Assembly: GCA_002291845.1 (NCBI GenBank)
Contig: DBAU01000048.1
Location: forward strand, 1 to 52,135
Direction: 5' to 3'
Origin: Alphaproteobacteria bacterium UBA1002
GTDB lineage: Bacteria > Pseudomonadota > Alphaproteobacteria > Rickettsiales > UBA998
DNA: 52,135 bases
Shown here: in pieces, positions 10,439 through 50,594 of the stretch
Layout: the number at the start of each line of letters is the position of its first letter
Numbering within the stretch: position 1 is the stretch's first letter
The notes under the pieces: generated by a model
The model's input: only the letters and a program-made list of their open reading frames with translations
Database searches by the model: none
What the model was told of the DNA's origin: nothing
Program-made: the position numbers and the translations under genes

Positions 10439-11254
10439 ATGCGTACATACCGTCACGTCAAAGCCAATCATACGCAGCTGGGTTTTACCCTGATCGAGCT
10501 TTCCATTGTGCTTGTCATTATCGGACTGATTGCCGGCGGTGTGATGCTTGGTAAAGACTTGGTCGAGCAAGCAGAATTGCGCAGTGCCATCAGTGATATT
10601 ACGCATTACACGAGCGCCATTAATCAGTTCAAAAGAAAGTTTTCTGCCCTGCCCGGTGACATGCGAAACGCCACACGCTTCTGGGGAGCTGCAAATGTGA
10701 CACCGGCCGTTTGTGCAACCACGGTGGGATCGGGGACGCAGACCTGTAATGGCAATGGCAATGGATGGATTGCACTAGGCGGGTCTGCTGCAGAAGAGTA
10801 TGAAAAATTTCGCTTCTGGCAGCATCTGGCCAATGCAGGAATCATCGAGGGTGCCTACAGCGGAGTAACTGGTCCCAATGGCACCAGTGAAGGGGTTATT
10901 GGCGTGAACGTACCCGCGAGTCGCATTCAGGGGGCAGGCTACTTCATCGATCATCAGGGAACGGTTCTGCCTGGAAATACTGTCTGGTTTCCTGCACGCT
11001 ATGACAATTTTTTGCAATTTGGTGCGTATAGTGGTTCGGGCCTTATTGGCCGTATCCTAAAGCCAGAACAAGCATTATTTATTGACAGCAAGCTGGATAA
11101 TGGGCTGCCTCATACAGGGATTGTGATTTCCTCCCCAAACACACGACCGGCCACGCCTGATTGCACATTAGGTGCAAACGGTGGCACCCAATATAATCTG
11201 GCCTATGGCATTGCGGCCTGCAATCTTTTTATCCTCCTTTCTGACACAAAATAG
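10439..11254 (+). CDS. prepilin-type N-terminal cleavage/methylation domain protein (pilin or pseudopilin-like, orphan)
   Basis: The leader MRTYRHVKANHTQLG is followed by FTLIELSIVLVIIGLIAGG, the class III signal / N-methylation motif. Confidence 0.75.
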   Translation: MRTYRHVKANHTQLGFTLIELSIVLVIIGLIAGGVMLGKDLVEQAELRSAISDITHYTSAINQFKRKFSALPGDMRNATRFWGAANVTPAVCATTVGSGTQTCNGNGNGWIALGGSAAEEYEKFRFWQHLANAGIIEGAYSGVTGPNGTSEGVIGVNVPASRIQGAGYFIDHQGTVLPGNTVWFPARYDNFLQFGAYSGSGLIGRILKPEQALFIDSKLDNGLPHTGIVISSPNTRPATPDCTLGANGGTQYNLAYGIAACNLFILLSDTK

Positions 11255-12425
11255 CGGCAGTTTTTCTGCGCAGCATCAATAGCGATAAGTCATCCGACAG
11301 TGCCTGACTTTCCGGCATTGTGATCCAGTGGTTGATCAGATGATGCAGGAAGGCCTTTACATTTGTTTCGGCATAGGAATGTTGCATGGATTCCAGTGCA
11401 CACCAGCGATGTAATGCATCCTCTTTCCCATGGCTCCAGCCCTCAATTAACGCATCGCTATACAGTAACAGGGTTGTCTGCGCAGGGAAGTCTATGGTGA
11501 TGGTTTCGTATGTCGCGTTACGAACTGCACCAAGAGGGTAGCCATGCCCGTTTAATGCGAGGGGCTGGGCGCCGTTGCATAACAAAAGCGGTTGTGTGTG
11601 TGCCGCTGTAGCATAAGAAAGTGTTTCGGCCTGCGTATCGAGAACACCGTACCACGCGGTGGCGAAATGTTGGCGGGGCAACAAAGCATAGAGCGCGTGA
11701 TTCAGTGCGGTGAGGTAAGCCCCCGGATCATCAGATGGGACAAGCTCGCGTTGGGTAAGGCTGTGGAAACGAAAACTATTCAGCGCCGCCAGAATTCCAT
11801 GGCCAGTGAAGTCCACCTGATAAAACGCCATGCGTGTTTGGCTGAGCGCTTTTACGCCCCACAGGTCTCCCGATAAGGATTGGCACGGCTGATGATGAAC
11901 CGCTAATTCCACCTGAAATGCTGCTTCGAGCGCGGCGCATTGCTCCGAATTTGGAAGAATGAGGGATTGCATGGCCCGCGCCGTATGTAACTCCTGCTGC
12001 CATTGACGTTGTTTATCCTGCAGCAGGCGCTGCATGGCTACGCGTTGTAGATGGATGGTGGTGCGCGCCACAAGCTCACCGGCTTGTAAGGGTTTTCGAA
12101 TAAAATCCGTGGCCCCAGCGGCAAAAATTTCTGCCAGGCCCTCCATGTTTTCGATGCCGGTTTGCACAATGATGGGGGTTTCCCGAAAGTCCGGCTGCTG
12201 ACGAAGGGTACGGCATACTGTGTAGCCGTCCATGCCGGGCATGATCACATCCAGCAGGATTAAATCCGGCTGATGTTCGAGGGCGGCATGTAAGGCTTCC
12301 TCGCCGTTGGTGGCAAAGAAAAGCTGGTCCACCCCCTGACGGCGCAGGATGGCGGCGGCAATCTGTCGACTATCCGCCGTATCATCTACAATCAGCACAC
12401 GCAGGCCCTGAATGGGGTATGTCAT
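11229..12425 (-). CDS. response regulator with PP2C/SpoIIE-type phosphatase output (RsbU/RssB-like)
   Basis: REC motifs: RVLIVDDTADS, LILLDVIMPGMDG, FIRKP. PP2C motifs: SLSGDLWGV, QVDFTGHGILAAL, LLLYSDALIEG. The start is taken at MTYPIQGL (cat 12423-12425). Confidence 0.85.
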   Translation of the reverse strand: MTYPIQGLRVLIVDDTADSRQIAAAILRRQGVDQLFFATNGEEALHAALEHQPDLILLDVIMPGMDGYTVCRTLRQQPDFRETPIIVQTGIENMEGLAEIFAAGATDFIRKPLQAGELVARTTIHLQRVAMQRLLQDKQRQWQQELHTARAMQSLILPNSEQCAALEAAFQVELAVHHQPCQSLSGDLWGVKALSQTRMAFYQVDFTGHGILAALNSFRFHSLTQRELVPSDDPGAYLTALNHALYALLPRQHFATAWYGVLDTQAETLSYATAAHTQPLLLCNGAQPLALNGHGYPLGAVRNATYETITIDFPAQTTLLLYSDALIEGWSHGKEDALHRWCALESMQHSYAETNVKAFLHHLINHWITMPESQALSDDLSLLMLRRKTAAILCQKGG

Positions 12426-12447
12426 GGAATCATGCATGTGGATTGCC

Positions 12448-12762
12448 TCAGGCGTAAGGGAGCCCAAAAATTTCATTTAAGCGTGAGGCGTGCAGAATAC
12501 GTTGCACCTGCCCTTGCGCCCCGCTCAGATGAATGCGCACGCGGAAACGATCACAATGTTCTTTCAGCAAGAGCAACAAGCCAAGCCCCGAAGAGTCAAT
12601 AAATTCAACCTGACGCAGATCCACGATCAGCGATTGGCAGGAGCTGCCGGCCCGCTCAATTTCCTGGCACAACTGCTCAACCAGCTTGTAATCGTGAAAA
12701 TGCGAGCGTCCGGATAGCTGAACAGCAAATCCGTTTGCGGTCTGCTCCAACACAATGTTCAT
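12448..12762 (-). CDS. STAS-domain anti-sigma-factor antagonist
   Basis: MNIVLEQTANGFAVQLSGRSHF...LIVDLRQVEFIDSSGLGLLLLL; DSSG is a SpoIIAA-type phosphoserine motif. The ATG overlaps the CheB-like stop (ATGA at 12759-12762). Confidence 0.85.
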   Translation of the reverse strand: MNIVLEQTANGFAVQLSGRSHFHDYKLVEQLCQEIERAGSSCQSLIVDLRQVEFIDSSGLGLLLLLKEHCDRFRVRIHLSGAQGQVQRILHASRLNEIFGLPYA

Positions 12763-13796
12763 GCGGGCACCTCGCAAGGCTGAGGGCATGAGGCTGCCAA
12801 AAACTGCGGCATGTTCTCCAGTGCCACGCTGTGATGTTTTCCACTTTGCATCTGCGTTCTCAGAGGTAGCTCTGGCGCAGTTGCGGTAAGTGGAGACTGC
12901 ACCCATGTGGTGGCACCGCATTGCTGCAATGCTCCTAAGCCGTTGCTTCCATCGGTACCGCAGCCGGCCAGCAAAACACCCATGGCGCGTGCACCGACCG
13001 TTTCAGCCAGGTGGGAGAAAAGGTTGTTAAGTGGCTCTGGTTCTGAGGTACGACGACCCGGTAGGATGGTGAGTCCTGTTTGTTCAACACGCAGATGCAC
13101 TGGGTGGCTGCTGCAGGTGATGTACACATGTCCGGGTAACAGCTGCAAACCGGGTCGTGCTGGCAGAACGGTGATTGTCTGAAAGGGGGCGCAGTGTCGG
13201 GAAATCAGTTGTGGAAACGGTTCAGGTAAGGGCTGGGCCATCAGCACGGGTGGCAAACGATCCGGCAAATGACGCAAAAGGTAGCTGACCGCTCCGGCCC
13301 CGCCGGAGGTGGCTCCAAAGGCAATAAGGTGGGGAGGCGCTCCGGTGGGTGGAGGAGGGGTGGTCTCTTCTCGCTTTCGTTTGCGTAACACGCGAATCTG
13401 TTCTGCGCTCCGCTGTGCCGCATGCACTCGCGTATGTAGCTGATCACGCAAAAGACTCATTTCCCGCGCGCTGGTGGCTGTTTTAATCACGACATCAAAG
13501 GCCCCCAGCTCCACCACGCGTAGGCTGGCCTGCAAACTGCGCTGGGTGAGTCGAGTGAGCAGAATGACTGGCGGAGCGACGGCATGCAGAAATGCCTCCC
13601 ATCCTGCACGCCCACGGCTGCCTGGCACCTCGACATCCATCACCACCACATCCGGTGACAAGCGTCGTAGCAAACGCTGTGCCGTGGCCAGATCACCCGC
13701 CGTGCCACAGACTTCGATCGACGCATCACTCTCCAGCAAACAACTGAGCATCTCGCGCATGAGCAAAGAGCCATCGACCACCAGGACGCGCAACAT
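12759..13796 (-). CDS. CheB-like receiver/methylesterase-fold protein (esterase active site apparently degenerate)
   Basis: REC motifs: MLRVLVVDGS..VVMDVEVPG..VVIKT. The C-terminal CheB-fold has LIAFGATSGGAGAV, LLPGHVYI and LLAGCGTDGSNG. QHMP is replaced by QPLP and the FGMP motif is missing. Confidence 0.8.
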   Translation of the reverse strand: MLRVLVVDGSLLMREMLSCLLESDASIEVCGTAGDLATAQRLLRRLSPDVVVMDVEVPGSRGRAGWEAFLHAVAPPVILLTRLTQRSLQASLRVVELGAFDVVIKTATSAREMSLLRDQLHTRVHAAQRSAEQIRVLRKRKREETTPPPPTGAPPHLIAFGATSGGAGAVSYLLRHLPDRLPPVLMAQPLPEPFPQLISRHCAPFQTITVLPARPGLQLLPGHVYITCSSHPVHLRVEQTGLTILPGRRTSEPEPLNNLFSHLAETVGARAMGVLLAGCGTDGSNGLGALQQCGATTWVQSPLTATAPELPLRTQMQSGKHHSVALENMPQFLAASCPQPCEVPA

Positions 13797-13798
13797 GA

Positions 13799-16450
13799 TT
13801 AAAATTCCTCCCACCCGGCTTCCACGGGGGCGTGATGGCCATTGGTCTTGTGCGCACGTGGTGCCAGACGCGGGGTTTTTCGTGTGCTCTCCGCGCGCAC
13901 CGTAACCGCCGGACGGGCAGTAACCGCCGGCGCTTCCTGTGCCTCTTCCTCACGGCCAAGGCGGAAATATCCAATCAGGCCACGTAGCTCGCCACCTTTT
14001 TCGGCCAGGGATTGTGAGGCTGCCGCGGTTTGTTCAACCAGTGCGGCATTCTGCTGCGTCATTTCATCCATCTGCGTGACGGTGGTATTGATCTGATTAA
14101 TACCAATGGCCTGCTCTTGGCTGGCATGAGCGATTGAGCTGACAATATCGGCCACACGTGCCACGGAGCTAATAATCTCCTGCAGTGTTTCGCCTGTGCG
14201 GTTGACCAGATCGGAGCCGCTTTTGACTTGGCTCACGCTCTCCTGAATCAGCATTTTGATTTCCTTGGAGGCCGAAGAAGAGCGTCCCGCCAGTGCCCTC
14301 ACTTCGCTTGCGACCACGGCAAAGCCCTTGCCTGCTTCGCCAGCCCGTGCCGCTTCTACAGCGGCATTGAGTGCCAGCAAGTTGGTCTGGAAGGCGATCT
14401 CATCAATCACACCAATAATATCAGCAATTTTCTGTGATGAGTGCTCTATGGCCTGCATGGCAGTGATAGCTGCGCCCACCACCTCGCCTCCACGCTCTGC
14501 AACCTGCCGTGTCTCGCCAGAGAAGCTGCTTGCCTCTCGCGCACTTTGGGCATTCTGTTTCACTGTGCCCGTCATTTCTTCCATGGAGGCCGCCGTTTCC
14601 TCCAGTGACGAAGCCTGACTTTCCGTACGTGTTGACAGGTCTCGGCTGCCATCGGCGATTTCCGACGCGGATCCACTCACGGACTCCGCCGTATCCTTGA
14701 TGCGCTTTACCAGATCGCGTAGTTGAAGGATGGTATCATTCAGCGCCTGCTGCATGTCACCAAAGGCACCGCTGAATTGCCCATCCATGGTGTGGGTAAG
14801 GTCCCCTTTGGCCAGGTGGCGCACCACCTGAATCGCGGCATCCACCGGACGAATAACGGTATCGAGCAGGCTATTCATGCTTTCTGCCAGCTCACGATAG
14901 AAGCCTTCAAATTGTGCTGCCTCAATCCGTTCAGCAAGGTTGCCTTCCCGCGCACTGGCAATCAGGTGATTGATGCTTTCCTGTGCACGTTTTACACTTT
15001 CCTCGGCGTTCTTTTCATCGGTGACAAAGCGCCAGTCGATAAAGGCTCCGTTGAAGCGGCCATCGCTTGTGGGGAGCTGGTTGGCGGTCAGTGACATCCA
15101 TTCGTCACCAATGCGGAACACCGTATGCAGCGGCAGTTTGGCACGATCCACCAGAGCCCCGCGTTGGTGTGAAGGGTTTTTATGGAAGATATCGATATTG
15201 CTACCCACCATGCGATCCGCTGTCACTGGCAGATGCCGTTCAATTTTCCGCAGTGCACGGCGGGCGGCCTCGTTGAGGTAGGTAATGGTGAAATCGCGGT
15301 CGCACATCATGAGCGGCATCGTGTGATTTTCAATCATGCTCTGGAGGGTAATGTTTCGGCTGATTGCTTGATGCAGGCGCAGGCATGCACGCTGCAGGGC
15401 GCCAATTTCAGTGTCATGCGAACTATCCTCCAGCACGATATCTGTCTGCCCTTCCGCCAGCGCGGAGACGGTGGCAACGGCATGCCGCAGGGGCCGCACA
15501 ATGCTACGCGCGATGAAGAGGGATGCCAGCGTTCCCAATGCCAGCGCCACACAGGCAATGATGATGGAGGAAAGACTCAGTTCGCCAAGTTGCGCGCTTT
15601 CTGTTTGCGTGATGTGCTGCTGTTCTTCCACTTTTTGCTGGGCCAGCCCGCCGGAACGTGTGGTCGCTTCCGTAATAATGCCCGCCATACGCTGATCGAA
15701 CAGCATATTTCGTTCACGGATCAATCCATCCACTTTGCGAAATGCTTGCAGATACGCCGGTAGGATGGTGGAAAGTTGGGTAAGTTCTTCGCTGGATACA
15801 TCTCCCTCGCCAGCAAGCTGGGTGAGAAGGGTATTGATGGTGGTGGAAAGCTGCTCAATATTGGCCGCATGTTCGGGCTTGTTACTGAGCAGAAACTTCA
15901 TGGCTTCCAGTCGAGCGTTTAGGAATGATTCATCCAGTTGCTGCAGAACAGGTTGACGCGCGTCGCCACTGGGAAGCGAGCGGCGAGCGGCATCCAGTAG
16001 CCGGCCACCCTGCGGCCCCAGCACATCCATTTCTTCTTTTACCACCTGATTGCGCTGTGCGATCAGTTCAGCAACCCGTGCCGCATCCGCGCGGTATTGT
16101 ACCAGTAAGCTTGCCAGAGCCTGTACCTCCTGGTGCGGCGTGCCTTCCTTGATATGTGCGGCCGTATCCTTGGCTTGCTGGTCCAGCATATCTAGGCGTT
16201 TAACCAACGCCTCATAAAGCGCCGGATCCATCGTGGTGCGAAATTGCCGTGCCAGCAGATTGACCTCAATAAAGCCTTTTTCAATATCACGCAGCAGCCG
16301 CACATCTTCGACCACGGATGCGAGGATAACAAATTGTTCCCGCGTATGCAGAATCCCGCTGAGCATCTGTCCGGTGGATCCGGCCATCAGGAGCATCAGC
16401 AACAACATTCCTGCGCCAATGCGCCAGCTTATTTTAAAACGTGACAGCAT
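13799..16450 (-). CDS. methyl-accepting chemotaxis protein, domain order TM-periplasmic helical domain-TM-HAMP-PAS-HAMP-MA, with a C-terminal GWEEF pentapeptide (Aer2-like PAS)
   Basis: N-terminal TM, second [25 protein letters not shown] with [16 protein letters not shown] tip [35 protein letters not shown]. The protein ends in ...VEAGWEEF. Confidence 0.9.
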
Positions 16451-16493
16451 CGTTTGGGTCTCCTATTTTTTGGCCAAACAGGCCGTTCTCCGG

Positions 16494-17498
16494 TTAGAAA
16501 AGTTCAACATCCACATGCCCTTCCTGAGTGGCGGCAGAAGGGCCATGTAGGCTTTGGCGTAACTGTTCGCGCAGATCGCTAAGGTTCAATACGTTCAGAA
16601 CCTCTTCTTCATCTGGGGCGCCATTGCGATGGCTCAGCTGTGCCAATGCGGCTTGTCCGTTGCGAAGATACTGGCAAACACGATCTTGAAATTGCAGGCT
16701 GATAACGGTTTGGGCGATGGTCTGCGCTAAATCTCGCGACGCCAGAGAGGTATGGCGCAGCATGGACTGGAAAGCCTCATTCTGTTCGCCGATGGACGTC
16801 ATCATGTCCCCAATTTTGCTACGCAGAAGGATATTGTCAGAGAGGTCCGTTTCCGCGGAGGCTTTGAGAGATCGGTAACACTGCGCCACACTCTCCGCCA
16901 CATTTCCAATCCCCTGTTCCATCTGATGTGAGAGGTTCTGAATATCGCCGGAGAGCAGCTTTACCTCTGCCGCAACTACGGCGAAGCCATGTCCGGCTTC
17001 GCCCGCCGATTGCGCCTCAATGGTGGCGTTGATCGCCAGCATACGCGTTTGTTTGGTAATTCGCCGGATGGCCTGAACGAGCCGGGTGATATCCTCCAGC
17101 GTGGCTTGTGCCTGATCAAACTGTGAGGCCATGGTAAGGGACAGTTTGGTAATACTTAAAATCCGCTCGATCGAGACATCCAGCGTCTGGCCGATAAGCT
17201 GGAGCGCTTCCTCCAGAGGCATAAGATTGCCTTCAACCTTTACCTTTGCCCCCTGAGCCACCAGTGCATCAACCTGCTGAGCCTGCATCAGGGCTTGCGA
17301 TGCCATGTCCTGAAACCGCTGACTGATCGCATCTGTCTGGGTGGTGACATCGTGACAGGCCCGTTCAATGCAGTCTTGCACCAGTCCAAGCGTGGCCTGC
17401 AGCAAAGAGTTCCCATCGTCCTGAGGCGCGTGGGGTTCTGGCGCCAGGATAGAAGAATAATCGTCCAGGTAGATATTATTGTTGATGTATGTGCTCAT
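16494..17498 (-). CDS. soluble MCP-signalling-domain protein
   Basis: It has no TM segment and the tip motif MLAINATIEAQSAGEAGHGFAVVAAEVKLL. FQDxxxQ motifs lie on both flanking helices. Confidence 0.8.
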   Translation of the reverse strand: MSTYINNNIYLDDYSSILAPEPHAPQDDGNSLLQATLGLVQDCIERACHDVTTQTDAISQRFQDMASQALMQAQQVDALVAQGAKVKVEGNLMPLEEALQLIGQTLDVSIERILSITKLSLTMASQFDQAQATLEDITRLVQAIRRITKQTRMLAINATIEAQSAGEAGHGFAVVAAEVKLLSGDIQNLSHQMEQGIGNVAESVAQCYRSLKASAETDLSDNILLRSKIGDMMTSIGEQNEAFQSMLRHTSLASRDLAQTIAQTVISLQFQDRVCQYLRNGQAALAQLSHRNGAPDEEEVLNVLNLSDLREQLRQSLHGPSAATQEGHVDVELF

Positions 17499-17703
17499 AG
17501 GTTGTGCCTAGGGGTGCAAAACAGGCATGCCTTCTCTGGCACAACAGTTATCGCTAGAAAGTGTACCATGTCAACACAACTATAAGTATACATAGCGAGG
17601 TGCACCGGCTGACTTGTCACAGCAAGAAAAACTCCATGCTGGGGAACGCTTTCAAGCCTCCTGGTGGCTGTACCTTGCCTACAGAACCGTTTAGGGTACC
17701 GCC

Positions 17704-18828
17704 ATGAGTCGCTGGATATCGTTTGATTCTGATGCAAAGCGTCCGGTCGTACGGCTGGAAGATGCCTGGGTAGGGCCGTCCCTCTCGGCAATCCAGCGCG
17801 CTCTGCAAGACGTGCCCGCCCTACCGTCGAGGGTTGCGCTGGATGCAACGGCGCTTGGACGCCTCGATACAGCCGCTGCCTGGATTCTGGTCCACTGGCT
17901 GCGCCAACGTCAAAACGAGGGGACGCAGTTTGAGATCATCGGTCTGAATGAAGACCACGCCAAAGTGCTGAGCATGATGGAATCGCTGCTATGCCCTGCG
18001 GCGGCGCTTCCTGCTCCTCCACCGGCGGGCTGGTCAGCCCCGTTTATAGCGCTGGGTCGTGAATTTCTGTTCTGGCGAAAGGATATGGTCGACCTGCTGG
18101 CATTTTTTGGTCACCTCGCCATAGTCGGCTGGCGCGTCCTATGCGAGCCCTCGCGTCTGAGGGGGCGAAGCATCGTCTATCATCTGCACCATGTAGGGCT
18201 GAAGGCGATGCCCATTATTGCACTGCTGGCATTTCTTATTTCACTGGTGCTGGGATATCAGGGTGTGGCGCAACTCAGTAAATTTAATGCGCAGGCTTTT
18301 ACCATTGATGCCGTGGCGGTCTCTATTTTGCGTGAGATGGGGGTCCTTCTGACCTCCATCATGGTCGCCGGACGATCCGGTAGCGCCTTTACTGCTCAGA
18401 TTGGGGTGATGAAGCTCAATCAGGAAGTGGACGCCATGCGGACGCTCGGCCTTGATCCCTACGAAGTGCTGGTCCTGCCGCGGGTACTGGCTATTCTCAT
18501 TGCGCTCCCGGTACTAACATTCCTAGCTGATATGGTGGGGTTGTTTGGCGCCATAACGGTCGGGGTTACCATGCTGGATATGAGCCTTACCCAGTGCATT
18601 TACCGGCTGGAAGCCACGATAAAGCTGAATACATTCGTAGTCGGTATGGTAAAAGCCCCTGTTTTTGCCTTACTGATCGGACTGGTGGGCTGTCTGCGCG
18701 GTCTACAGGTTAAAAACGCTGCAGATGAGGTAGGGCGTCAAACCACGCTGGCCGTGGTGCAATCAATCTTTCTTATCATCATGGCCGATGCCATGTTCTC
18801 CATCCTTTTTACGCTTTTGAAGGTCTGA
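17704..18828 (+). CDS. MlaE-family ABC permease with a fused N-terminal STAS (MlaB-like) domain
   Basis: The N-terminal ~95 aa (VALDATALGRLDTAAAWILVHWL..FEIIGLNEDHAKVL) look STAS-like. They are followed by the MlaE/YrbE permease core (REMGVLLTSIMVAGRSGSAFTAQIGVMKLNQEVDAM). Confidence 0.85.
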   Translation: MSRWISFDSDAKRPVVRLEDAWVGPSLSAIQRALQDVPALPSRVALDATALGRLDTAAAWILVHWLRQRQNEGTQFEIIGLNEDHAKVLSMMESLLCPAAALPAPPPAGWSAPFIALGREFLFWRKDMVDLLAFFGHLAIVGWRVLCEPSRLRGRSIVYHLHHVGLKAMPIIALLAFLISLVLGYQGVAQLSKFNAQAFTIDAVAVSILREMGVLLTSIMVAGRSGSAFTAQIGVMKLNQEVDAMRTLGLDPYEVLVLPRVLAILIALPVLTFLADMVGLFGAITVGVTMLDMSLTQCIYRLEATIKLNTFVVGMVKAPVFALLIGLVGCLRGLQVKNAADEVGRQTTLAVVQSIFLIIMADAMFSILFTLLKV

Positions 18829-18831
18829 GGC

Positions 18832-19599
18832 ATGTCGCGTACCCCGGTCATTTCGGTTCGTGGATTGGTGAACCGCTTCGGCACACAGGTGGTCCATGAC
18901 GGCCTTGATTTTGATCTCTACCCGGGAGAAATCATCGGTGTGATCGGTGGTTCCGGTTCCGGAAAGACGGTGCTTCTGCGCTCCATCATCGGGCTGCAAT
19001 GTCCGGCGGCGGGCAAAATTCTTGTCGATGGACGGGATCTGTTGCAGCTTTCTGCGGAGGAAGTGCTCGAGGTGCAGCAGCTATGGGGGGTGATGTTTCA
19101 AGGCGGCGCGTTATTTTCCTCACTTACGGTGCAGGAAAATGTCGAGGTGGCGATGCAGGAATCCAAGCGCCTGCCACTCGATATGATTCCCGAACTGGCG
19201 CGCATGAAAATCGCGATGGCGGGCCTGCCCCCCGAGGCACGTGATAAACTGCCTGCAGAGCTGTCCGGCGGTATGATCAAGCGCGCGGCGCTTGCGCGTG
19301 CCCTGGCACTCGATCCACGCGTGCTGTTTCTCGATGAGCCAACTGCCGGACTCGATCCGGTGCTGGCTGCAGCGTTTGACCAGCTGATCCGCGATCTGGC
19401 ACAAAGTCTCGATATTGCTGTGATGATGATTACACATGACCTTGATAGTTTATTCTCGATCTGTGACCGGGTAGCGGTGTTAGTGGATAAGAAAATCAAG
19501 GTCGATACGATTGAACAGCTGCAACGTGATTCGCATCCGTGGATTCAGTCTTACTTCGGTGGACCGCGCGCGCAGCAAGCTCAAGTGAGGCATAGCTGA
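18832..19599 (+). CDS. MlaF-like ABC transporter ATP-binding protein
   Basis: Intact Walker A GGSGSGKT, signature LSGGMIKR, Walker B LFLDEPTAGLD, H-loop ITHD. Confidence 0.9.
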   Translation: MSRTPVISVRGLVNRFGTQVVHDGLDFDLYPGEIIGVIGGSGSGKTVLLRSIIGLQCPAAGKILVDGRDLLQLSAEEVLEVQQLWGVMFQGGALFSSLTVQENVEVAMQESKRLPLDMIPELARMKIAMAGLPPEARDKLPAELSGGMIKRAALARALALDPRVLFLDEPTAGLDPVLAAAFDQLIRDLAQSLDIAVMMITHDLDSLFSICDRVAVLVDKKIKVDTIEQLQRDSHPWIQSYFGGPRAQQAQVRHS

Positions 19600-20384
19600 T
19601 GGAAACGGAATCACATTATTTCAAAGTCGGGGTGTTTTTGACCCTTGGCATTGTCGGGTTGGTCGCTTTCCTGATGTGGATGGGCGCCACTGGCGATGAC
19701 CGTGACTACAAAACCTATGCCATCTATTTCCTTGGTGATATCAGCGGGCTGAAACCGGGCGCAGCGGTTAAGTTTAAAGGGCTCGATGTGGGGGCTGTAC
19801 AGTCACTGCGTTTTGATGAAGAGGATCCGAATTATATCCGGGTGCTGGTGCAGGTAGATGAAGCCGCACCAATCACCCAGCACACGGTGGCCACAGTCCG
19901 TTTCCAGGATGTGATTGGCACATCGGCCATTGCACTGCAGAATATTGTAGACATGCCGGAGGGCATGGTCGCACGCGAAGATAAAAATTATCCGGTGATT
20001 CCTTCGCGCCCGTCAGATCTGGAAAAGGTGATCGCCAGCCTGCCCGAGGCGATGGAGACGGTACGCAAGCTGGGTGAACAGGGTAGCAAGTTGCTTAGCG
20101 ATGAAAACCTTGCGGCTCTGGCCGGCATTCTAGTGTCGCTCGACGGATCTCTGAAAACCTTTGATACTACTCTGCAATCGGTTGATCGTGCGGCACAGAA
20201 AGGCGAAACCCTGCTGGATGGTCACGTGGCGCATGATCTCCGTGATACCCTGATGGAGGGACGTGCCGCGCTACGTGAAATTCGTCTGCTGGCAAAGTCG
20301 CTGCGTGATGATCCCTCGCAGGTGATTCGTCAGCCCGCCTACAAGGGCTATACCCCGGCGGAAGGAGCAGAGAATGCGCGTTAA
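19599..20384 (+). CDS. MlaD/MCE-domain substrate-binding protein
   Basis: N-terminal TM anchor followed by an MCE-like fold (GLKPGAAVKFKGLDVGAVQSL). The ATG overlaps the mlaF stop (TGATG). Confidence 0.8.
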   Translation: METESHYFKVGVFLTLGIVGLVAFLMWMGATGDDRDYKTYAIYFLGDISGLKPGAAVKFKGLDVGAVQSLRFDEEDPNYIRVLVQVDEAAPITQHTVATVRFQDVIGTSAIALQNIVDMPEGMVAREDKNYPVIPSRPSDLEKVIASLPEAMETVRKLGEQGSKLLSDENLAALAGILVSLDGSLKTFDTTLQSVDRAAQKGETLLDGHVAHDLRDTLMEGRAALREIRLLAKSLRDDPSQVIRQPAYKGYTPAEGAENAR

Positions 20385-20982
20385 TCGTTTCAGCCCCCTT
20401 TTCATAGCGATTCTTATGCTTTGCGGCTGTAACTTTTCGCTGGAGCGAGAGGGTGGTGAGCAATACCTGATGGATGTGCCCTCTGTCACAGCGGCTCCGC
20501 GGGATAAGCCGGCACGAGGGACGCTGACCGTCTACCTCCCCACAGTGAATGCGGCGCTTGATACACGCCGGGTGGCCCTGCAGCGTCCGGATGCGGCGTT
20601 TGACTACTATGCGGATGCGCGCTGGGCTGATTTCCTGCCTTTATTAGTAAGAGATGCCATCACCCAGACCCTGCAGCATCGCCGCCTGACGGAACGGACA
20701 CAGAGTGACGATAATTTAGCCGTCGGACCTTACCGCCTGATGTTAACGGTGGAGCAGTTTCAGGCGGTCTATACTGATTCGGCTGCTCCCCCGGTGGTTT
20801 ATGTGCATTTACAGGCCGACCTTCTGGATAGTCGTCGCCCGCGAAGCCCGCATCATTTTGATATTCAAACGCAAGCGCCGGCAACCCATGATGAACGCCG
20901 CGCCATTCTCGCGGCATTTCATTCCGCCTTCGAAATAGCGCAGCGCGACCTGATGGAACGGCTGAGCCGGGTAATTCAATAA
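20374..20982 (+). CDS. ABC-transport auxiliary lipoprotein (DUF330-like)
   Basis: Lipobox LMLCGC, and the usual position downstream of an MCE gene. It overlaps the previous gene by 11 nt. Confidence 0.65.
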   Translation: MRVNRFSPLFIAILMLCGCNFSLEREGGEQYLMDVPSVTAAPRDKPARGTLTVYLPTVNAALDTRRVALQRPDAAFDYYADARWADFLPLLVRDAITQTLQHRRLTERTQSDDNLAVGPYRLMLTVEQFQAVYTDSAAPPVVYVHLQADLLDSRRPRSPHHFDIQTQAPATHDERRAILAAFHSAFEIAQRDLMERLSRVIQ

Positions 20983-20996
20983 GAAAGATCCAAATG

Positions 20997-22013
20997 TCAG
21001 GCGGCGCTGGCAATGTCTGAAGCGGTGACCCGGTTGCGTCCGTTGCGTTTGGCGGTGAACAATGCTTCATCGGCACGTTTCACTAGCAGGGGAAGGGTAT
21101 CATCCGGCTGGCAGCCAGCGATACCAATGGATACGGTGACCGTACCAAAGCTTGCCCCAGAGGCCTTATGAAGAAGTTCTTTGTTGGCAATGGCGTGGCG
21201 GATGTTCTCTGCGACGACCAATGCGCCAGCAACCGGTGTTTTGGGTAGGATGACGGCAAACTCTTCTCCGCCAAAACGTGCAACAATATCGGTACCTTTG
21301 ACCGTCTCACGCAGAAGGCGGGCGACCATTTTCAGCACCTCGTCTCCGATCAAGTGGCCGTATTCATCATTGAAATGCTTGAAATGATCGACATCAATCA
21401 TCAGCAGGCAGAAGGGGGCCTGTTCTTCCCGGGCGATGATGATAAGCTCATCCATCAAACGATCAAACGCCTTACGATTAAATAGACCGGTAAGAAAGTC
21501 GCGCTGAGCTTCTGCGGTGGCTTCCTGCAGGCTTTTGCGGAGCAAATCGATTTCCAGCCGAGATTCATCCAGCCGCTGATGGAGCTGATCACCACTTTTT
21601 TTGAGGCCCCGCGCACTCTCAATGATGGAGGATACCAGTTGTTTCAGCTCTCCTTGCTGCTGAGACTCCAGCTCTGAGATGTGATCATCAATTTCGCTAT
21701 GATAGGTCCGCGTCTGGTTCGTGGTGTCGGCAATCACTTTCAGGATGTCGGTGAGCAATACTTTGGCGCGCTCCGGTTCCTCCAGGGTTGGTGCGGAGGG
21801 CTCCACATGCTTGCGATACAGGTAGTCACTGGTGGCCGCATCAAGTGATACCGCCTCTTGCACCAGCCGGTCCATCTCTGCCGTAAGGGCCGGGTTCTGC
21901 TCGGCGACATAATGATACCACAGCGCGTAATGGCGTGGCGTCGGTTCGATGCCAGCATCGCGCATGCGCTGTAGCGCTTGCGCGCTGATGTGATGCACAT
22001 CTTTACTGGTCAT
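20997..22013 (-). CDS. diguanylate cyclase (GGDEF) with an N-terminal coiled-coil sensor region
   Basis: DFLTGLFNRKAF, IDVDHFKHFNDEYGHLIGD, ARFGGEEFAV (active GGEEF). There is no RxxD I-site immediately upstream (KGTD). Confidence 0.85.
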   Translation of the reverse strand: MTSKDVHHISAQALQRMRDAGIEPTPRHYALWYHYVAEQNPALTAEMDRLVQEAVSLDAATSDYLYRKHVEPSAPTLEEPERAKVLLTDILKVIADTTNQTRTYHSEIDDHISELESQQQGELKQLVSSIIESARGLKKSGDQLHQRLDESRLEIDLLRKSLQEATAEAQRDFLTGLFNRKAFDRLMDELIIIAREEQAPFCLLMIDVDHFKHFNDEYGHLIGDEVLKMVARLLRETVKGTDIVARFGGEEFAVILPKTPVAGALVVAENIRHAIANKELLHKASGASFGTVTVSIGIAGCQPDDTLPLLVKRADEALFTAKRNGRNRVTASDIASAA

Positions 22014-25173: not shown

Positions 25174-25250
<77 letters not shown>

Positions 25251-33458: not shown

Positions 33459-34724
33459 ATGTCTAGTCCCTCAACCACGGCTGTTATTGGCACCGGCATT
33501 TCCGGGATGGGCGCGTCCTACTTGCTGAAGGATGCGACCCAGCTGACCATTTATGAGCAGGGTAATTACATCGGCGGCCACACCCGCACGCGCGAAGTGA
33601 ATTATGAGGGCACGCGCATTCCGGTGGATACTGGCTTCATCGTGTTTAATTACCGTAACTACCCGCACCTCACCGCGCTGTTTCAGCAGCTGGACGTGCC
33701 GGTAGAAAAAAGCGACATGTCCTTTGCGATTTCTGTGCAAGATGGCGTGTTCGAGTGGGGCGCGCAGACACTGAACGCCGTGTTCGGGCAGCGTCGCAAC
33801 CTGTTTTCGCCGCGTTTCTGGGGCATCATCCGCGATGTGAAGCGCTTCTTCCGTGAAGCCCCCGCCTTGCTGGAGCAGAATCTCAGCCTCTCGCTCGGCG
33901 AGCTGCTGGAGCAGATGAAGCTGGGCGAAGGCTTCCGCCGTGACTTCCTGCTTCCCATGGGTGGCGCGATCTGGAGCTGCCCGGTGGAAACCATGCTCAG
34001 CTTCCCGGCACAGACCTTCCTGCGCTTCTTCCATAATCACGGGCTGCTCAGCTTCAATGACCAGCCGCAATGGTACACCGTGAGCGGTGGTGCGCGGGAA
34101 TACGTCACTCGCCTGACCGCACCGTTTGCTGAGCGCATCCGCCTTAATTGCGGCGTCACGGCTGTGCGGCGTACCGAAAGCGGGGTGGAGGTGACGGACG
34201 TCACCGGGCGTACCGAGGCGTATGACCAGGTGGTATTTGCCTGCCATGGCGATCAGGCGCTGCGCCTGCTACAGGACGCCACGCCTAAGGAGCGCGAGAT
34301 TCTCTCCGCGTTTGAATACCAGAAAAACCGCGCCTATCTGCACCGCGACGTGCGCCAGATGCCGAGGCGCCGCGCCTGCTGGGCAAGCTGGGTCTATCTC
34401 TCCGATGGCAAGGCGCGTCCTGAGGCGCTGGCCGTGACTTACTGGATGAACAAGCTGCAGAATATCGATGCGCGCTATCCGCTCTTTGTGACGCTTAACC
34501 CGCTGACACCGATTGCGCCGGAGCTGATTTTTGATGAAACGGAGTTCGAGCATCCGGTCTTCTCCGCCGCCGCCATTGCCGCGCAGTCGCGCATCGGCGA
34601 AATTCAGGGCACGGACCGTGCCTGGTTCTGCGGCGCGTGGCAGCGTTATGGATTCCATGAAGACGGCTTGAATAGCGCCGTGGAAATGGCCGCCCGCATG
34701 GGAATTACCCCGTCATGGCGCTAA
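33459..34724 (+). CDS. NAD(P)/FAD-dependent oxidoreductase (amine-oxidase/desaturase-like)
   Basis: AVIGTGISGMGASYLL dinucleotide-binding motif at the N-terminus. It is the first gene of the conserved cfa-like cluster. Confidence 0.8.
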   Translation: MSSPSTTAVIGTGISGMGASYLLKDATQLTIYEQGNYIGGHTRTREVNYEGTRIPVDTGFIVFNYRNYPHLTALFQQLDVPVEKSDMSFAISVQDGVFEWGAQTLNAVFGQRRNLFSPRFWGIIRDVKRFFREAPALLEQNLSLSLGELLEQMKLGEGFRRDFLLPMGGAIWSCPVETMLSFPAQTFLRFFHNHGLLSFNDQPQWYTVSGGAREYVTRLTAPFAERIRLNCGVTAVRRTESGVEVTDVTGRTEAYDQVVFACHGDQALRLLQDATPKEREILSAFEYQKNRAYLHRDVRQMPRRRACWASWVYLSDGKARPEALAVTYWMNKLQNIDARYPLFVTLNPLTPIAPELIFDETEFEHPVFSAAAIAAQSRIGEIQGTDRAWFCGAWQRYGFHEDGLNSAVEMAARMGITPSWR

Positions 34725-35482
34725 GCAATGGCCTGCTGGTTTCCGATGTGGTGCATGTGCGGCATGTGCCAAAGCGCCATGCGTTTCGCTATACGGTTTA
34801 TTACCTGTGCTTTCCCCTCTCGCGCATGGCGGAGCTGGAAGCGGCACGCCCGCTTAGTGTCAACCGAACCGGGCTATTTTCCTTTTATGAAAAAGACCAT
34901 GGGCTAGGGCAGGCCGCGCCCGCTGAGGCATGGATTCGCCGCCGCATGGATGAATGGGGGCTGACCGCCGCCGATGGCGAGGTGGTATTGCTCACCATGC
35001 CACGCGTGATGGGCTACGTCTTCAACCCGGTCAGTTTTTGGTTCTGCCTGGATAAAGCAGGCCAGCTACGTGCGGTGTATGCCGAGGTAAACAATACGTT
35101 CGGTGAGCAGCACGGCTATTGGTGTTTTCATGATGATCAGCGTCCTATCACCCGCGATGATGTGCTCACCACGCGCAAGCAGTTTCATGTCTCTCCCTTT
35201 TTTGAGGTCACAGGCGAGTATCGCTTCCGCTTTGCCTATGGCGAGGAAAAGCTTGGTGTATGGATCGATCATGATGCACATGGACAGCATGTGCTTTCCA
35301 CCGCGCTGACCGGCAAGCGTCAGCCGCTGACTACGGCCAATTTACTTTATTGCTTTGCACGCTATCCGCTGGTGACATTGAAAGTCATTATGCTGATTCA
35401 TTACCATGCCCTGCGGCTGGTAATGAAAGGTATCCGCTATCGTACTAAACCCAATCCCCCCCTTCAGGAGGTTTCCCGATGA
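34715..35482 (+). CDS. DUF1365-family protein
   Basis: VVHVRHVPKRHAFRYTVYYLCFPL...NRTGLFSFYEKDHG matches my memory of the DUF1365 pattern. It overlaps both neighbours. Confidence 0.72.
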   Translation: MALSNGLLVSDVVHVRHVPKRHAFRYTVYYLCFPLSRMAELEAARPLSVNRTGLFSFYEKDHGLGQAAPAEAWIRRRMDEWGLTAADGEVVLLTMPRVMGYVFNPVSFWFCLDKAGQLRAVYAEVNNTFGEQHGYWCFHDDQRPITRDDVLTTRKQFHVSPFFEVTGEYRFRFAYGEEKLGVWIDHDAHGQHVLSTALTGKRQPLTTANLLYCFARYPLVTLKVIMLIHYHALRLVMKGIRYRTKPNPPLQEVSR

Positions 35483-36651
35483 AGAACTTGCTTGTCTCCC
35501 GTGTATCCGGCCCGTTTCTTGATGCGTTTGAGCGCGCCGAATGCGGCAGCCTGCACCTCACCGCGCCTGGTGGCATCTCACGCCATTTTCAGGGCAGCCG
35601 CCCCGGCCCGCAGGCCACATTTCATATTCATGAATGGGATACTTTAATGATGCTGGTTTCACGCGGGGATATTGGTCTGGGTGAGGCTTATATCGACGGC
35701 CTGTGGGATACCGAAGACCTCGACGCGTTGTTTCAGTATTTCCTGCTCAACCTCGACCAGCTGGAAGGCTATGCACATGGCACCTGGTGGAACCGCATGC
35801 TGTTCAACTTTGTGAATCAGGTGATCCGCCGTAACTCACCGCAGGGCAGCAAGCATAACATCCGCGCCCATTACGATGTAGGCAACGAGTTCTACTCGCT
35901 GTGGCTGGATGAGAGCATGACCTATTCCAGTGCCCTGTTTCCAAGCAATGACAATGCCACGCTGGAACAGGCACAGGAGCGCAAATATGGTCGCATCCTG
36001 CAACGCATCGGTGGCAGTGCTGGTAACGTGTTGGAGGTCGGCTGCGGCTGGGGCGGCTTTGCCGAAGCGGCTGCCCGTGAAGGGCGGCAGGTCACCGGCA
36101 TTACGGTCTCGCCTGCGCAGCATGCGTTTGCTACACAGCGGCTGGGCAATAAAGCGGACATTCGCTTACAGGATTACCGCCATACCGAGGGCCGCTTTGA
36201 TGCAATCGTCTCGATCGAAATGTTTGAGGCGGTTGGCGAACGCTACTGGCCGACCTATTTTTCCACGCTGAAGCAACGGCTCAGCGAAGGAGGGAGTGCC
36301 GTGATCCAGACCATTACCGTCGATGATGCGATTTTCCCCGGCTATCGTACACGTAGCGATTTCATCCGCCATTACACCTTCCCCGGTGGTATGCTGCCCT
36401 CCGTGCAGCGTTTTCGTGAAGAGGCCCAGAAGGTGGGTTTTGTCTGCCGTGATGTGTACCGTTTTGGGCAGGATTACGCCCGTACGCTGCGCGAATGGCT
36501 GGTGCGCTTTGATGCCGCTGAACCCCAGATCCGCGCGCTGGGGTATGATACTCCATTCCTGCGTACCTGGCGTTTCTACCTGGCCATGTGCGCGGCGGCG
36601 TTCCATGTTGGCCGTACCGATGTCGTGCAAGTGGAGCTGGGCCATGCGTAG
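35479..36651 (+). CDS. cyclopropane-fatty-acyl-phospholipid synthase-like SAM-dependent methyltransferase
   Basis: NIRAHYDVGNEFYSLWLDESMTYSSALF, LEVGCGWGGFA (SAM motif I), SIEMFEAVGERYW, FIRHYTFPGGMLPS. Confidence 0.85.
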   Translation: MKNLLVSRVSGPFLDAFERAECGSLHLTAPGGISRHFQGSRPGPQATFHIHEWDTLMMLVSRGDIGLGEAYIDGLWDTEDLDALFQYFLLNLDQLEGYAHGTWWNRMLFNFVNQVIRRNSPQGSKHNIRAHYDVGNEFYSLWLDESMTYSSALFPSNDNATLEQAQERKYGRILQRIGGSAGNVLEVGCGWGGFAEAAAREGRQVTGITVSPAQHAFATQRLGNKADIRLQDYRHTEGRFDAIVSIEMFEAVGERYWPTYFSTLKQRLSEGGSAVIQTITVDDAIFPGYRTRSDFIRHYTFPGGMLPSVQRFREEAQKVGFVCRDVYRFGQDYARTLREWLVRFDAAEPQIRALGYDTPFLRTWRFYLAMCAAAFHVGRTDVVQVELGHA

Positions 36652-37171
36652 CCGCCTTTTAATGCTCGCTGCGGCGTGGTTACTGGCGACTCCGGCTTTT
36701 GCTGAGCCACTCCCGGAAATTAAGGATACGCTGAAGGCCGAGGCGCCTTATGGAAAAGGTGATCTCCGCTGGCTGTGGATGAAGGCCTATGACGCCTCCT
36801 TATGGACGGATACGAAACCCTGGTCGATGAGCGCGCCTTTCGCGCTCAGCCTGACCTATGACATGGAGTTCGCGTCCGAAGAGCTCGCGGATCGCTCGAT
36901 TGATGAAATGCGGCGAGTGTCAAGCCTGAGCAAGACGCAGCTCGAAACCCTGCGCTCAATCTTGCGTCGGGTGTTTCCAAACGTAAAGTCAGGGGATCGT
37001 ATTACCGCGCTCTACCTTCCGGGAAAGTCTGTGCGTTTTTTCTATAATGGTGCGCCCAAGGGCAAGGTGACGGAGCCGTATTTCCCCGAGGCTTTTTTTG
37101 GTATCTGGCTCTCGGAGAAAACCTCTGAGCCTGGGCTGCGCCGTGCCCTGCTGGCGCTGGAGCGCCCGTGA
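36644..37171 (+). CDS. chalcone-isomerase-like family protein (secreted)
   Basis: Signal peptide MRSRLLMLAAAWLLATPAFA, then LRWLWMKAYDASLW. The true start is ATG 36644, overlapping the cfa-like stop. The track ORF from 36323 is an out-of-context extension. Confidence 0.6.
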   Translation: MRSRLLMLAAAWLLATPAFAEPLPEIKDTLKAEAPYGKGDLRWLWMKAYDASLWTDTKPWSMSAPFALSLTYDMEFASEELADRSIDEMRRVSSLSKTQLETLRSILRRVFPNVKSGDRITALYLPGKSVRFFYNGAPKGKVTEPYFPEAFFGIWLSEKTSEPGLRRALLALERP

Positions 37172-38442
37172 CACTGCTTCCCCAGCGAGATCTGGTATAT
37201 TATGGCTTGTTCGGTTTGCCGTTGGCCTTTGCTGGTCTTCCGCTGTATGTCCATCTTCCGCATTACTATAATGCCGTGCACGGTATGGAGCTGGCGCTGA
37301 TCGGTGGGCTGCTCTTGCTGGCGCGGCTGGTGGATACGGTGCAGGATCCGTTGATCGGTTGGGCGGGGGATCGCTGGCCACAGCATCGCCGCCGTGCGAT
37401 GATCATTAGCCTGCCTGTGATGGCGGTCGCGTTTGCTGCTCTCTTTCATCCTCCTGCCTTTGCGAAGGGGCATCTCGCCGTGTGGTTGGTTGCTCTGCTG
37501 GTAGTGGTGTATACCGCGTTTAGCGTGCTGAGTATTTTCTACAATGCCTTGGGTGTGCGGTTGGCGGGTGGTGATTATCATCAAAATACACGTGTAACCG
37601 CGGCGCGCGAAGGCATGGTCCTTGTGGGGGTGGTGCTTGCTGCCGCACTGCCGCACGCATTCGTGCAACGTTTTGGCATGTCCGAAGGGTTTATGTATGT
37701 CAGCGGGATATTTGCCCTGCTCCTCGCCGGATTCAGCTTCCCGCTGCTTGCTCGCGGGGAATGGTTCCATCAGCGCGATACCGGCGTCCCACCGGCGGCA
37801 TTGGCGATAGGGGCGTCCCTTGCCGCCTGCTGGCAGGCACGTGACCTGCGCTGGCTCTTTGGCTTGTTCTTCGTCAATGCATTGCCGGTGGCGTTCACCT
37901 CAACACTGTTTCTGTTTTTTGTGGAAGACCGTCTTGACGCAGAATCGGAAGCGGGCTGGCTACTCATGCTCTATTTCCTTACGGCGGCGGCATCGATTCC
38001 TGTTTGGAGCGCACTCAGCCGCCATTACGGCAAGCGCCGACCGCTCATGGTCGCCTTACTGCTGGCGGTGACGTCGTTCATCTGGGCCTACGGGTTGCAG
38101 GCGGGAGAAGTGACCTCTTTTGCTATCATCTGCGCACTCTCCGGAATCGCGGTAGGGGGAGATATGGCGCTCCTACCCTCGCTGCTGTCCGATGGGCTGA
38201 AAGAGCGGCCTCAGCTGCATAGTTTTGCCTTCGGACTATGGAATTTCCTTACCAAGCTAACACTTGCCTTAGCCGCGGGTATCGCCTTGCCGCTGCTGGA
38301 GGTGGCGGGCTATCGCCCCGGTGACGCAGCGACATCCACGCAGGCACTGGCGGTGACATACGCCCTGTTACCCTGCGCATTGAAGCTGTTATCCATTCTA
38401 CTGTTATTTCTTATTCCACTCGATGCACGGAGACCCGTATGA
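37168..38442 (+). CDS. MFS-type transporter (GPH/MFS_2-like)
   Basis: About 12 hydrophobic segments. It has a GTG start overlapping the previous stop and a conserved position in cfa-like clusters. Confidence 0.72.
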   Translation: MTLLPQRDLVYYGLFGLPLAFAGLPLYVHLPHYYNAVHGMELALIGGLLLLARLVDTVQDPLIGWAGDRWPQHRRRAMIISLPVMAVAFAALFHPPAFAKGHLAVWLVALLVVVYTAFSVLSIFYNALGVRLAGGDYHQNTRVTAAREGMVLVGVVLAAALPHAFVQRFGMSEGFMYVSGIFALLLAGFSFPLLARGEWFHQRDTGVPPAALAIGASLAACWQARDLRWLFGLFFVNALPVAFTSTLFLFFVEDRLDAESEAGWLLMLYFLTAAASIPVWSALSRHYGKRRPLMVALLLAVTSFIWAYGLQAGEVTSFAIICALSGIAVGGDMALLPSLLSDGLKERPQLHSFAFGLWNFLTKLTLALAAGIALPLLEVAGYRPGDAATSTQALAVTYALLPCALKLLSILLLFLIPLDARRPV

Positions 38443-38969: not shown

Positions 38970-38971
38970 CC

Positions 38972-50335: not shown

Positions 50336-50422
50336 GGAGGGATGGCCGAGCGGTCAATGGCAGCAGACTGTAAATCTGCCGGGCTTCGCCCTACGTTGGT
50401 TCGAATCCAACTCCCTCCACCA
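50336..50422 (+). tRNA. tRNA-Tyr (anticodon GTA), long variable arm
   Basis: GGAGGGA acceptor paired with TCCCTCC, anticodon arm GCAGACTGTAAATCTGC, variable arm CGGGCTTCGCCC, T-loop GGTTCGAATCC, encoded CCA. Confidence 0.95.
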
Positions 50423-50594
50423 CTCCACGAAGCATACATTCATCACCGTGGCTTCTTATGATGATGCGTTGAGACGCACCGGCGTGTATTTGTACTCATA
50501 AATGCAATCAGGGGTAGAAAGAAATCTGAAATAATAACGGAAAATTAAGGTTGCGTCGGCATAGTACCCTCCGCGAATAAATTGAGTGAGTGCG

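Follow-up and report, generated by a model that had tools for sequence, protein, structure and literature searches.

The stretch analyzed here, contig DBAU01000048.1 (52,135 nt in all; "the window" below means this whole stretch) of Alphaproteobacteria bacterium UBA1002, carries at 11229-17498 on the minus strand five tightly packed open reading frames (ORFs) that look like a pared-down chemosensory cluster: two chemoreceptors (methyl-accepting chemotaxis proteins, or MCPs), a CheB homolog that has lost catalytic residues, and a partner-switch pair made up of a STAS protein and a REC-PP2C phosphatase. We lean toward the view that these genes (g1 to g5, in order of transcription) are one operon encoding a functional receptor-to-partner-switch module that lacks adaptation and would depend on kinases encoded elsewhere. 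The reduced operon itself is evidently old, fixed in at least seven lineages and selected. The features are as follows (Pfam assignments are all above gathering cut-offs).

16494-17498, minus strand: g1, soluble MCP of 334 aa (Pfam MCPsignal)
13799-16450, minus strand: g2, predicted transmembrane Aer2-type receptor of 883 aa (Pfam HAMP, HAMP_2, MCPsignal)
13802-13816, minus strand: GWEEF pentapeptide at the C-terminus of g2 (read directly from the sequence)
12759-13796 (alternative start 13814), minus strand: g3, REC-CheB-like protein of 345 aa (Pfam Response_reg and CheB_methylest)
12448-12762, minus strand: g4, STAS protein of 104 aa, counted from an internal ATG as the gene callers have it (Pfam STAS, STAS_2)
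11229-12437 (alternative start 12476), minus strand: g5, REC-PP2C protein of 402 aa (Pfam Response_reg and SpoIIE)

A sequence-only reading had described five packed genes on one strand here, and the ORFs, domains and junctions all bear it out: each family it proposed to check (MCPsignal, CheB_methylest, STAS, SpoIIE, Response_reg) was matched, and the motifs it quoted are present (DSSG in the STAS protein; SGDLW, DFTGHG and YSDAL in the PP2C domain). Direct reading gives a g1-g2 spacer of 43 nt with AGGAG inside it, a g2-g3 gap of 2 nt, a shared ATGA at 12759-12762 that places the start of g4 on the stop of g3, and a g4-g5 gap of 10 nt. Pfam searches (47 ORFs of at least 150 aa, plus the larger ORFs, 101-154 aa, in non-coding gaps) and tblastn with the Che proteins of L009, a distant relative with a complete cluster (g5 40% identical), found no CheA, CheW, CheR, CheD, CheY, HATPase_c_2/RsbW-type kinase or sigma-70-family factor in the 52 kb. 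The sequence-only reading had likewise seen no CheA, CheW, CheR, CheY, RsbW-type kinase or sigma factor.

This reduced arrangement is not peculiar to the window. A word-indexed homolog search with g3 returned nothing above 30% identity, and the clade orthologs were reached through g5 (relatives at 51-59% identity) and gene context. All six relatives with context (L003, L005, L172, L173, L174 and L007, the last being GCA_019749855.1 with the label "Rickettsiales bacterium") have the order soluble MCP, transmembrane MCP, g3, STAS, REC-PP2C, then xseA and purD; together with the window they make up the seven clade lineages, and no clade locus shows similarity to CheA, CheW, CheR or CheD. Compared with L003, L005 and L007, the window has 83-90% identity in PurD and 37-71% in the cluster proteins. 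Across the seven lineages synonymous sites are at or close to saturation, and in the closest pair (L003/L005) dN/dS is 0.087 for g1, 0.059 for g2, 0.085 for g3, 0.058 for g4 and 0.096 for g5, with 0.074 for the housekeeping neighbor xseA. Because the same order is found in seven lineages and is accompanied by purifying selection, this is neither a recent deletion nor a decaying locus.

The suggestions of a recent deletion, of pseudogene scars in the gaps and of a "decayed" cluster, all raised from the sequence alone, therefore fell away: the loci of the six relatives have no cheA, cheW or cheR and share one order, the spacers (48 bp or less in the three relatives measured) leave no room for gene scars, and dN/dS lies at 0.06-0.10 for all five genes. 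We accordingly regard a non-functional locus in decay as very improbable. Such a locus might be expected from g3, which has lost its catalytic residues differently from lineage to lineage, is truncated in one and is evolving 1.3-2.3x faster at non-synonymous sites than its four neighbors (window versus L003), but it fits poorly with five genes that carry no frameshift or internal stop in any of the seven lineages, with dN/dS values like that of xseA, and with the invariance of the functional residues of g2, g4 and g5.

The clade is known from these seven loci only, since a scan of the genome collection with the clade g3 alignment gave a single clade genome (JAIEPI01) and a metagenome scan gave none. 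Two of its distinct members come from the same sample (JGI 3300039112): L172 (contig Ga0188691_00142) and the window (contig _00051), whose g5 proteins are 53% identical and each of which has the reduced operon.

The match of g3 to Salmonella CheB (1A2O, E = 6e-40) covers the whole protein. g3 passes the Pfam CheB_methylest gathering score (95.8 > 24), and it falls under the cut-offs of both NCBIfam CheB models (176.6 < 293; 162.2 < 342). In the gapless alignment to 1A2O, T163/P189/D282 stand in place of the triad Ser164/His190/Asp286; in the receiver, D8-G9 replace Asp10-Asp11, and D54 and K105 are kept (Asp56 and Lys109 in CheB). The earlier description of g3 as a CheB-like REC protein was right about the fold and overlooked the lost residues (two of the three in the triad and one receiver acidic residue). 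With this active site, the g3 of the window cannot be a methylesterase. The corresponding triad positions elsewhere are given below.

Window: T/P/D
L003 and L005: A/H/D
L172: S/D/D
L174: A/Q/D
L173 (9265-9681): esterase domain lost, with a 138-aa receiver plus alpha5/linker remaining
L007: S/H/D
L009 (complete cluster): S/H/D

Thus L007 alone among the seven clade lineages keeps the full triad, and in L173 the esterase domain has gone without a scar, the remnant still overlapping the STAS start. Five of the seven have also lost the second acidic residue of the receiver (DG, DY, EA, ES, DG), and the phospho-acceptor Asp and the Lys are invariant across lineages. g3 evolves faster than the other four genes (37-45% identity), yet where selection can be measured it is purifying. 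Its receiver and esterase halves are about equally conserved (53% vs 47%). By these comparisons most lineages have g3 as a conserved pseudo-enzyme, the esterase chemistry having been given up after the loss of CheR and CheD, apparently more than once. In CheB the alpha5/linker junction is the binding site for receptor pentapeptides (PMC8609364), and this region is present even in the 138-aa remnant of L173; most likely, and this is the inference that we favor, g3 has been kept as a non-catalytic docking partner of the receptor, bound through GWEEF.

The receptor that bears this pentapeptide, g2, has two transmembrane segments by hydropathy (TM1 at aa 16-34, TM2 at about aa 292-315) with a periplasmic domain between them, followed in the cytoplasm by HAMP (312-355), a heme-type PAS domain (about 368-490), HAMP_2 (513-574) and the signaling domain (531-849), after which come a variable linker and the terminal GWEEF. 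Because it aligns without gaps to residues 217-535 of E. coli Tsr, the signaling module can be assigned to the 36-heptad (36H) class. Structures of the heme-PAS domains of V. cholerae and P. aeruginosa Aer2 (3VOL, 4HI4 and 6CEQ, the last at E = 7e-13) align to the PAS domain of g2, which keeps both the heme-PAS motif FHKNPxHQR (FHKNPSHQR in g2) and the O2-stabilizing Trp, so the label "Aer2-like" was apt; heme binding is predicted. The best NCBIfam match is the Aer2 equivalog (527.8 bits, under the cut-off of 1200, with residues 369-883 matched). From the PAS domain to the C-terminus g2 is, on these matches, an Aer2-type receptor; its two transmembrane segments and periplasmic domain are not those of the soluble PAS-HAMP Aer2 architecture.

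Over the seven lineages the tip of g2 is 76% invariant, the linker 10% and GWEEF 100%, and GWEEF is invariant in L009 as well. The 53 tip residues about the hairpin do not differ among six of the seven lineages and the L009 ortholog, which is linked to CheA and CheW. The GWEEF of P. aeruginosa McpB/Aer2 binds CheR2 with a KD of 0.52 µM and CheB2 with a KD of 93 µM (PMC7698151), and by analogy that of g2 is presumably a tether motif for adaptation enzymes. The Glu/Gln pairs of the methylation sites are conserved too; which of them are Glu and which Gln is gene-encoded and differs among lineages, and across the seven lineages this showed no pattern with the state of the g3 triad.

The other receptor, g1 (MCPsignal, 73.5 bits), is scarcely more than a signaling domain: it has no sensor domain and, by hydropathy, no hydrophobic or transmembrane segment, such segments being confined to g2 among the five genes. 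It is 56-67% identical to its orthologs in the six other lineages and holds the position of McpA in the F7 clusters of P. aeruginosa, Shewanella and Vibrio. Its C-terminus (window 16494-16508) reads D(V/I)ELF in all seven lineages and EIELF in L009, behind a variable tail, with the terminal ELF invariant in all eight; it has the look of a second docking motif conserved at the C-terminus, one without the Trp of the classical pentapeptide.

Toward the end of the operon, g4 is a single-domain STAS protein of the anti-sigma-factor-antagonist type (NCBIfam TIGR00377, 58.1 > 53.45), in which Ser57, within DSSG, aligns to the phospho-Ser of SpoIIAA; D56-S57 are invariant in 10 sequences. g5 scores 93.3 bits to Response_reg and 117.4 bits to SpoIIE, with a canonical receiver (D18, D19, D63, T93, K115-P116) and intact PP2C metal-binding motifs (SGD191, D209-F-x-G-H-G, SD328, D382-D383), all of these residues being invariant across nine relatives. 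The nearest solved structure is P. aeruginosa RssB/PA2798 (3EQ2). Pfam finds no fused HATPase_c_2 kinase domain in g5; fused REC/PP2C/HATPase_c_2 forms do occur among its homologs (600-716 aa, 36-48% identity).

The intact g5 receiver bears on one radical reading of the operon: that the cell has no CheA or CheW at all, that the receptors act on the switch directly, and that the pseudo-CheB, seated on GWEEF, is the adaptor passing the conformation of the receptor to REC-PP2C or STAS. The genes that survive (receptors, CheB scaffold, STAS, PP2C) are just those that would be expected to cooperate in such a pathway, the GWEEF tether is invariant behind a variable linker, and the dead g3, which is under purifying selection with a degenerate acidic pocket, may need no kinase. 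A canonical and invariant g5 receiver nevertheless points to a genuine phosphodonor, the receptor tip matches residue for residue that of an ortholog adjoining CheA and CheW (L009), g3 is truncated in L173, and our literature searches gave no MCP signaling domain that acts on PP2C/STAS without CheA/CheW. We therefore consider signaling of this kind unlikely.

In L009 the order is soluble MCP (EIELF), STAS_2, CheY, CheA, CheW, MCP (GWEEF), CheR, CheD, CheB, STAS and REC-PP2C, with a REC-HATPase_c_2 kinase and a PAS histidine kinase next to it on the opposite strand; the window cluster is collinear with this order minus three blocks. It is likewise collinear with the F7 clusters published for S. 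oneidensis (che1 with CrsR/CrsA; PMC9855816) and for V. cholerae and V. vulnificus (che3 and che2 with RsbU/RsbV; PMC10107281). The comparisons support an F7/Che2-type cluster with an RsbU/RsbV-like pair attached as the ancestor, so that of the phrase "decayed Che2/F7-type cluster", used in the sequence-only reading, the F7/Che2 descent stands (collinearity with L009, the Aer2 PAS domain, GWEEF) and the decay or recent deletion does not. The F7 hallmarks present are the 36H Aer2-type receptor, the xWEEF pentapeptide and the collinear order; CheA/CheW/CheY and CheR/CheD were not found at the loci, and the CheB homolog is without its triad. The RsbU-RsbV-RsbW type is likewise represented in part, by the STAS Ser and the PP2C Asp residues, with no RsbW-type kinase or sigma factor in the 52 kb.

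The clade g3 alignment was also used to scan 185,579 species genomes. Of the 80 CheB loci nearest to it, 73 had CheR, 72 CheD, 59 CheA and 56 CheW, and only three had none of the four: L012 (the sole clade genome among them), L079 (a short contig) and L066 (a locus without detected receptor or switch genes). Complete clusters with STAS past CheB occur in Sedimenticolaceae, Methylomonas, Luteibacter and Lichenicoccus, and the sole named Acetobacteraceae isolate among these loci, Lichenicoccus roseus (L040), has a complete cluster. A further locus, L010 (8971-11161), combines CheD with STAS and REC-PP2C and has neither a receptor nor CheB or CheA in the surrounding 10 kb; it is another remnant, one which shows that the ancestral cluster was reduced in more than one way.

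Taken together, these observations suggest the following model. The ancestor would have had the order seen in L009, plus the neighboring REC-HATPase_c_2 serine kinase; the lineage would then have lost CheY/CheA/CheW, CheR/CheD and the adjacent kinase, and retained both receptors together with the CheB scaffold, STAS protein and phosphatase. The Aer2-type g2 may sense O2 or another gas through its heme-PAS domain as well as a periplasmic ligand, presumably with no methylation-based adaptation within the operon, since there is no CheR, CheD or active CheB. The state of the receptor would be passed by a histidine kinase encoded elsewhere to the receiver of g5. Because the tip surface that contacts CheA and CheW is conserved, a CheA/CheW pair from another locus would be the most likely donor, or else a kinase that uses the same surface. 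Phosphorylated g5 would dephosphorylate STAS-P, and the unphosphorylated STAS protein would bind an RsbW-type serine kinase/anti-sigma factor or some other effector encoded elsewhere, with g3 docked non-catalytically on the receptor through GWEEF.

Several points weigh against this model, and some of them favor another explanation: historical adjacency without coupling, in which the receptors, after loss of the F7 core, feed a different chemotaxis array encoded elsewhere (McpA of S. oneidensis, for instance, signals to Che3), the STAS/REC-PP2C pair is autonomous with a kinase of its own, and the genes share an operon simply for want of any event that would have split them. L010 and L011 have STAS/REC-PP2C pairs related to g4/g5 and no receptor, so receptor adjacency need not mean coupling; the switch genes of L009 have a separate, dedicated PAS histidine kinase and the REC-HATPase_c_2 protein beside them; extra MCPs of Aer2 clusters have been reported in the motility array (PMC9855816, PMC10107281); and a two-hybrid assay in V. 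vulnificus showed no CheA2-RsbU interaction (PMC10107281), the step from CheA to REC-PP2C being unproven even in complete systems. GWEEF and the methylation-site Glu/Gln pairs are kept, as would be expected if a foreign CheR/CheB adapts g2, and the sequences are equally compatible with GWEEF being kept for a CheR encoded elsewhere. Further, the CheA/CheW pair, the histidine kinase and the STAS kinase encoded in trans are all assumed, a search with the L009 REC-HATPase_c_2 protein gave 1309 homologs, none of which could be linked to a clade genome, the evidence for co-transcription is the gene spacing, and the loss of the esterase domain in L173 means that full-length g3 is dispensable. We nonetheless think mere adjacency possible rather than probable: order and tight packing (the ATGA overlap, gaps of 2-10 nt) have been kept across seven lineages at near-saturated synonymous sites, the linkage of F7 with RsbU/V recurs across Gamma- and Alphaproteobacteria, and a conserved dead CheB between receptors and switch would be puzzling if the two halves had nothing to do with each other.

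A "Rickettsiales" homolog of the L009 REC-HATPase_c_2 kinase, considered as a candidate for the missing STAS kinase, proved to belong to an unrelated genome (GCA_033762595.1). Within the window, about 34 kb from the operon, a 160-aa ORF (51197-51679, plus strand) has a marginal Hpt match (26 bits against a cut-off of 24.6) and starts 11 nt past a receiver (50586-51185, plus strand) that is split by an insertion of about 30 aa. It was down-weighted as a phosphodonor because the Pfam score is marginal, NCBIfam and PDB gave no match, and the His of HxxKG is apparently replaced (AKALKS); the two ORFs may be a degenerate phosphorelay pair, and we found no evidence tying them to the operon.

Upstream of g1 lies the sole sizeable non-coding stretch bordering the operon, which is on this ground, and by position alone, its presumed promoter region; a scan for consensus promoters and terminators gave matches at chance level.

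17499-17703, no strand assigned: divergent intergenic region of 205 bp between g1 and the STAS_2-MlaE gene (from the coordinates)

Beyond it, at 17704-20982 (plus strand), a divergent Mla-type operon encodes MlaE (with STAS_2 at its N-terminus), MlaF, MlaD and a lipoprotein of the ABC_trans_aux family, so that a second STAS domain lies 205 bp from the operon start; this adjacency is kept at six of the seven clade loci, L007 being the exception. Next comes a 338-aa GGDEF diguanylate cyclase with an unassigned 168-aa N-terminal region (20997-22013, minus strand), which is also near the cluster in L007, L173 and L174. Pseudomonas STAS proteins can bind diguanylate cyclases (HsbA-HsbD), and by analogy the GGDEF protein is a candidate output.

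On the other side, a 271-aa pseudopilin-like protein with a prepilin-type N-terminal methylation motif (10439-11254, plus strand) lies between xseA and g5, its 3' end overlapping that of g5 by 26 bp in convergent orientation. It is present in the window alone, g5 being followed directly by xseA at the six other clade loci, and looks like a lineage-specific insertion. Farther away, a co-oriented block at 33459-39715 (plus strand) encodes an amine-oxidase-like flavoprotein, DUF1365, cyclopropane-fatty-acid synthase, a chalcone-isomerase-like protein, MFS, DUF3833 and SDR proteins, and looks like a lipid-modification cluster. The sole Rfam matches in the window are three tRNAs (25174-25247, 50336-50419 and 51790-51860, plus strand).

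The interest of this operon lies in the output of Aer2-containing F7/Che2 systems, for which the clade amounts to a natural deletion experiment. That receptors, CheB scaffold and switch were kept together under selection at near-saturated synonymous sites argues that receptors and switch share one pathway, and provides a five-gene system in which this can be studied. It also offers a clear CheB pseudo-enzyme, in which catalysis was lost in several ways and the fold was kept, suggesting a non-catalytic, receptor-binding role for a protein normally seen purely as an adaptation enzyme. Should the genomes prove to be without CheA and CheW, this would be a new mode of MCP signaling, and the partner switch would be the long-sought output of Aer2/F7 (Che2-type) systems.

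A close described parallel is che1 of S. oneidensis, in which an McpA-type MCP, an Aer2-type 36H MCP, CheB, the STAS protein CrsA and the REC-PP2C protein CrsR lie in one transcription unit, and in which the partner switch controls the sigma factor RpoS (PMC9855816). Unlike the window, che1 keeps CheA1, CheY1, CheW1, CheR1 and CheD1; its CrsR has the fused anti-sigma/kinase domain that g5 lacks, its Aer2so lacks the transmembrane sensor that g2 has, and its CheB1 is presumably a conventional esterase, whereas g3 of the window is without the triad. The che3 cluster of V. cholerae and the che2 cluster of V. vulnificus share with the window the heme-PAS Aer2 of the 36H class with xWEEF and a sensor-less second MCP, and, at the cluster end, RsbU (REC-PP2C in two domains, with no kinase) and RsbV (STAS), but they have complete CheA, two CheW, CheY, CheR, CheD and CheB (PMC10107281). 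The Vibrio Aer2 proteins are soluble with 2-3 PAS domains; g2 is membrane-bound, with a periplasmic domain and one PAS domain.

In P. aeruginosa, the Che2 order (McpA, CheY2, CheA2, CheW2, Aer2/McpB, CheR2, CheD, CheB2) is collinear with the genes retained in the window; this cluster has the full core and adaptation set and no STAS/PP2C pair. Its GWEEF is identical, and the binding of CheR2 and CheB2 to it is specific (PMC7698151). The same organism has RssB (PA2798), which like g5 is a REC-PP2C protein and which adjoins the STAS protein RssC (PA2797), although g5 falls under the cut-off of the RssB equivalog model (107 bits vs 700). HsbR/HsbA resemble g4/g5 as a REC-gated partner switch acting on a STAS protein (PMC6482189), but in HsbR a kinase domain is fused to the protein and the Hpt donor is known, and neither RssB/RssC nor HptB-HsbR-HsbA is linked to chemoreceptors as the pair in the window is. 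In the RsbK-RsbM-RsbY-RsbV system of B. cereus a REC-PP2C protein, RsbY, again drives a STAS-based switch, and modulation of the input kinase by a CheR-like methyltransferase provides a further link between chemotaxis and partner switching (PMC4574943); there, unlike in the window, the input is a hybrid histidine kinase, an RsbW kinase and sigma-B lie alongside, and the organism is Gram-positive. The Shewanella and Vibrio papers suggested that the F7 system "could be involved" in RpoS control via CrsR/CrsA or RsbU/RsbV (PMC9855816, PMC10107281). The joining of an F7/Aer2 cluster to an RsbU/RsbV-type switch is already known, and the operon of the window is a reduced form of it, with a dead CheB.

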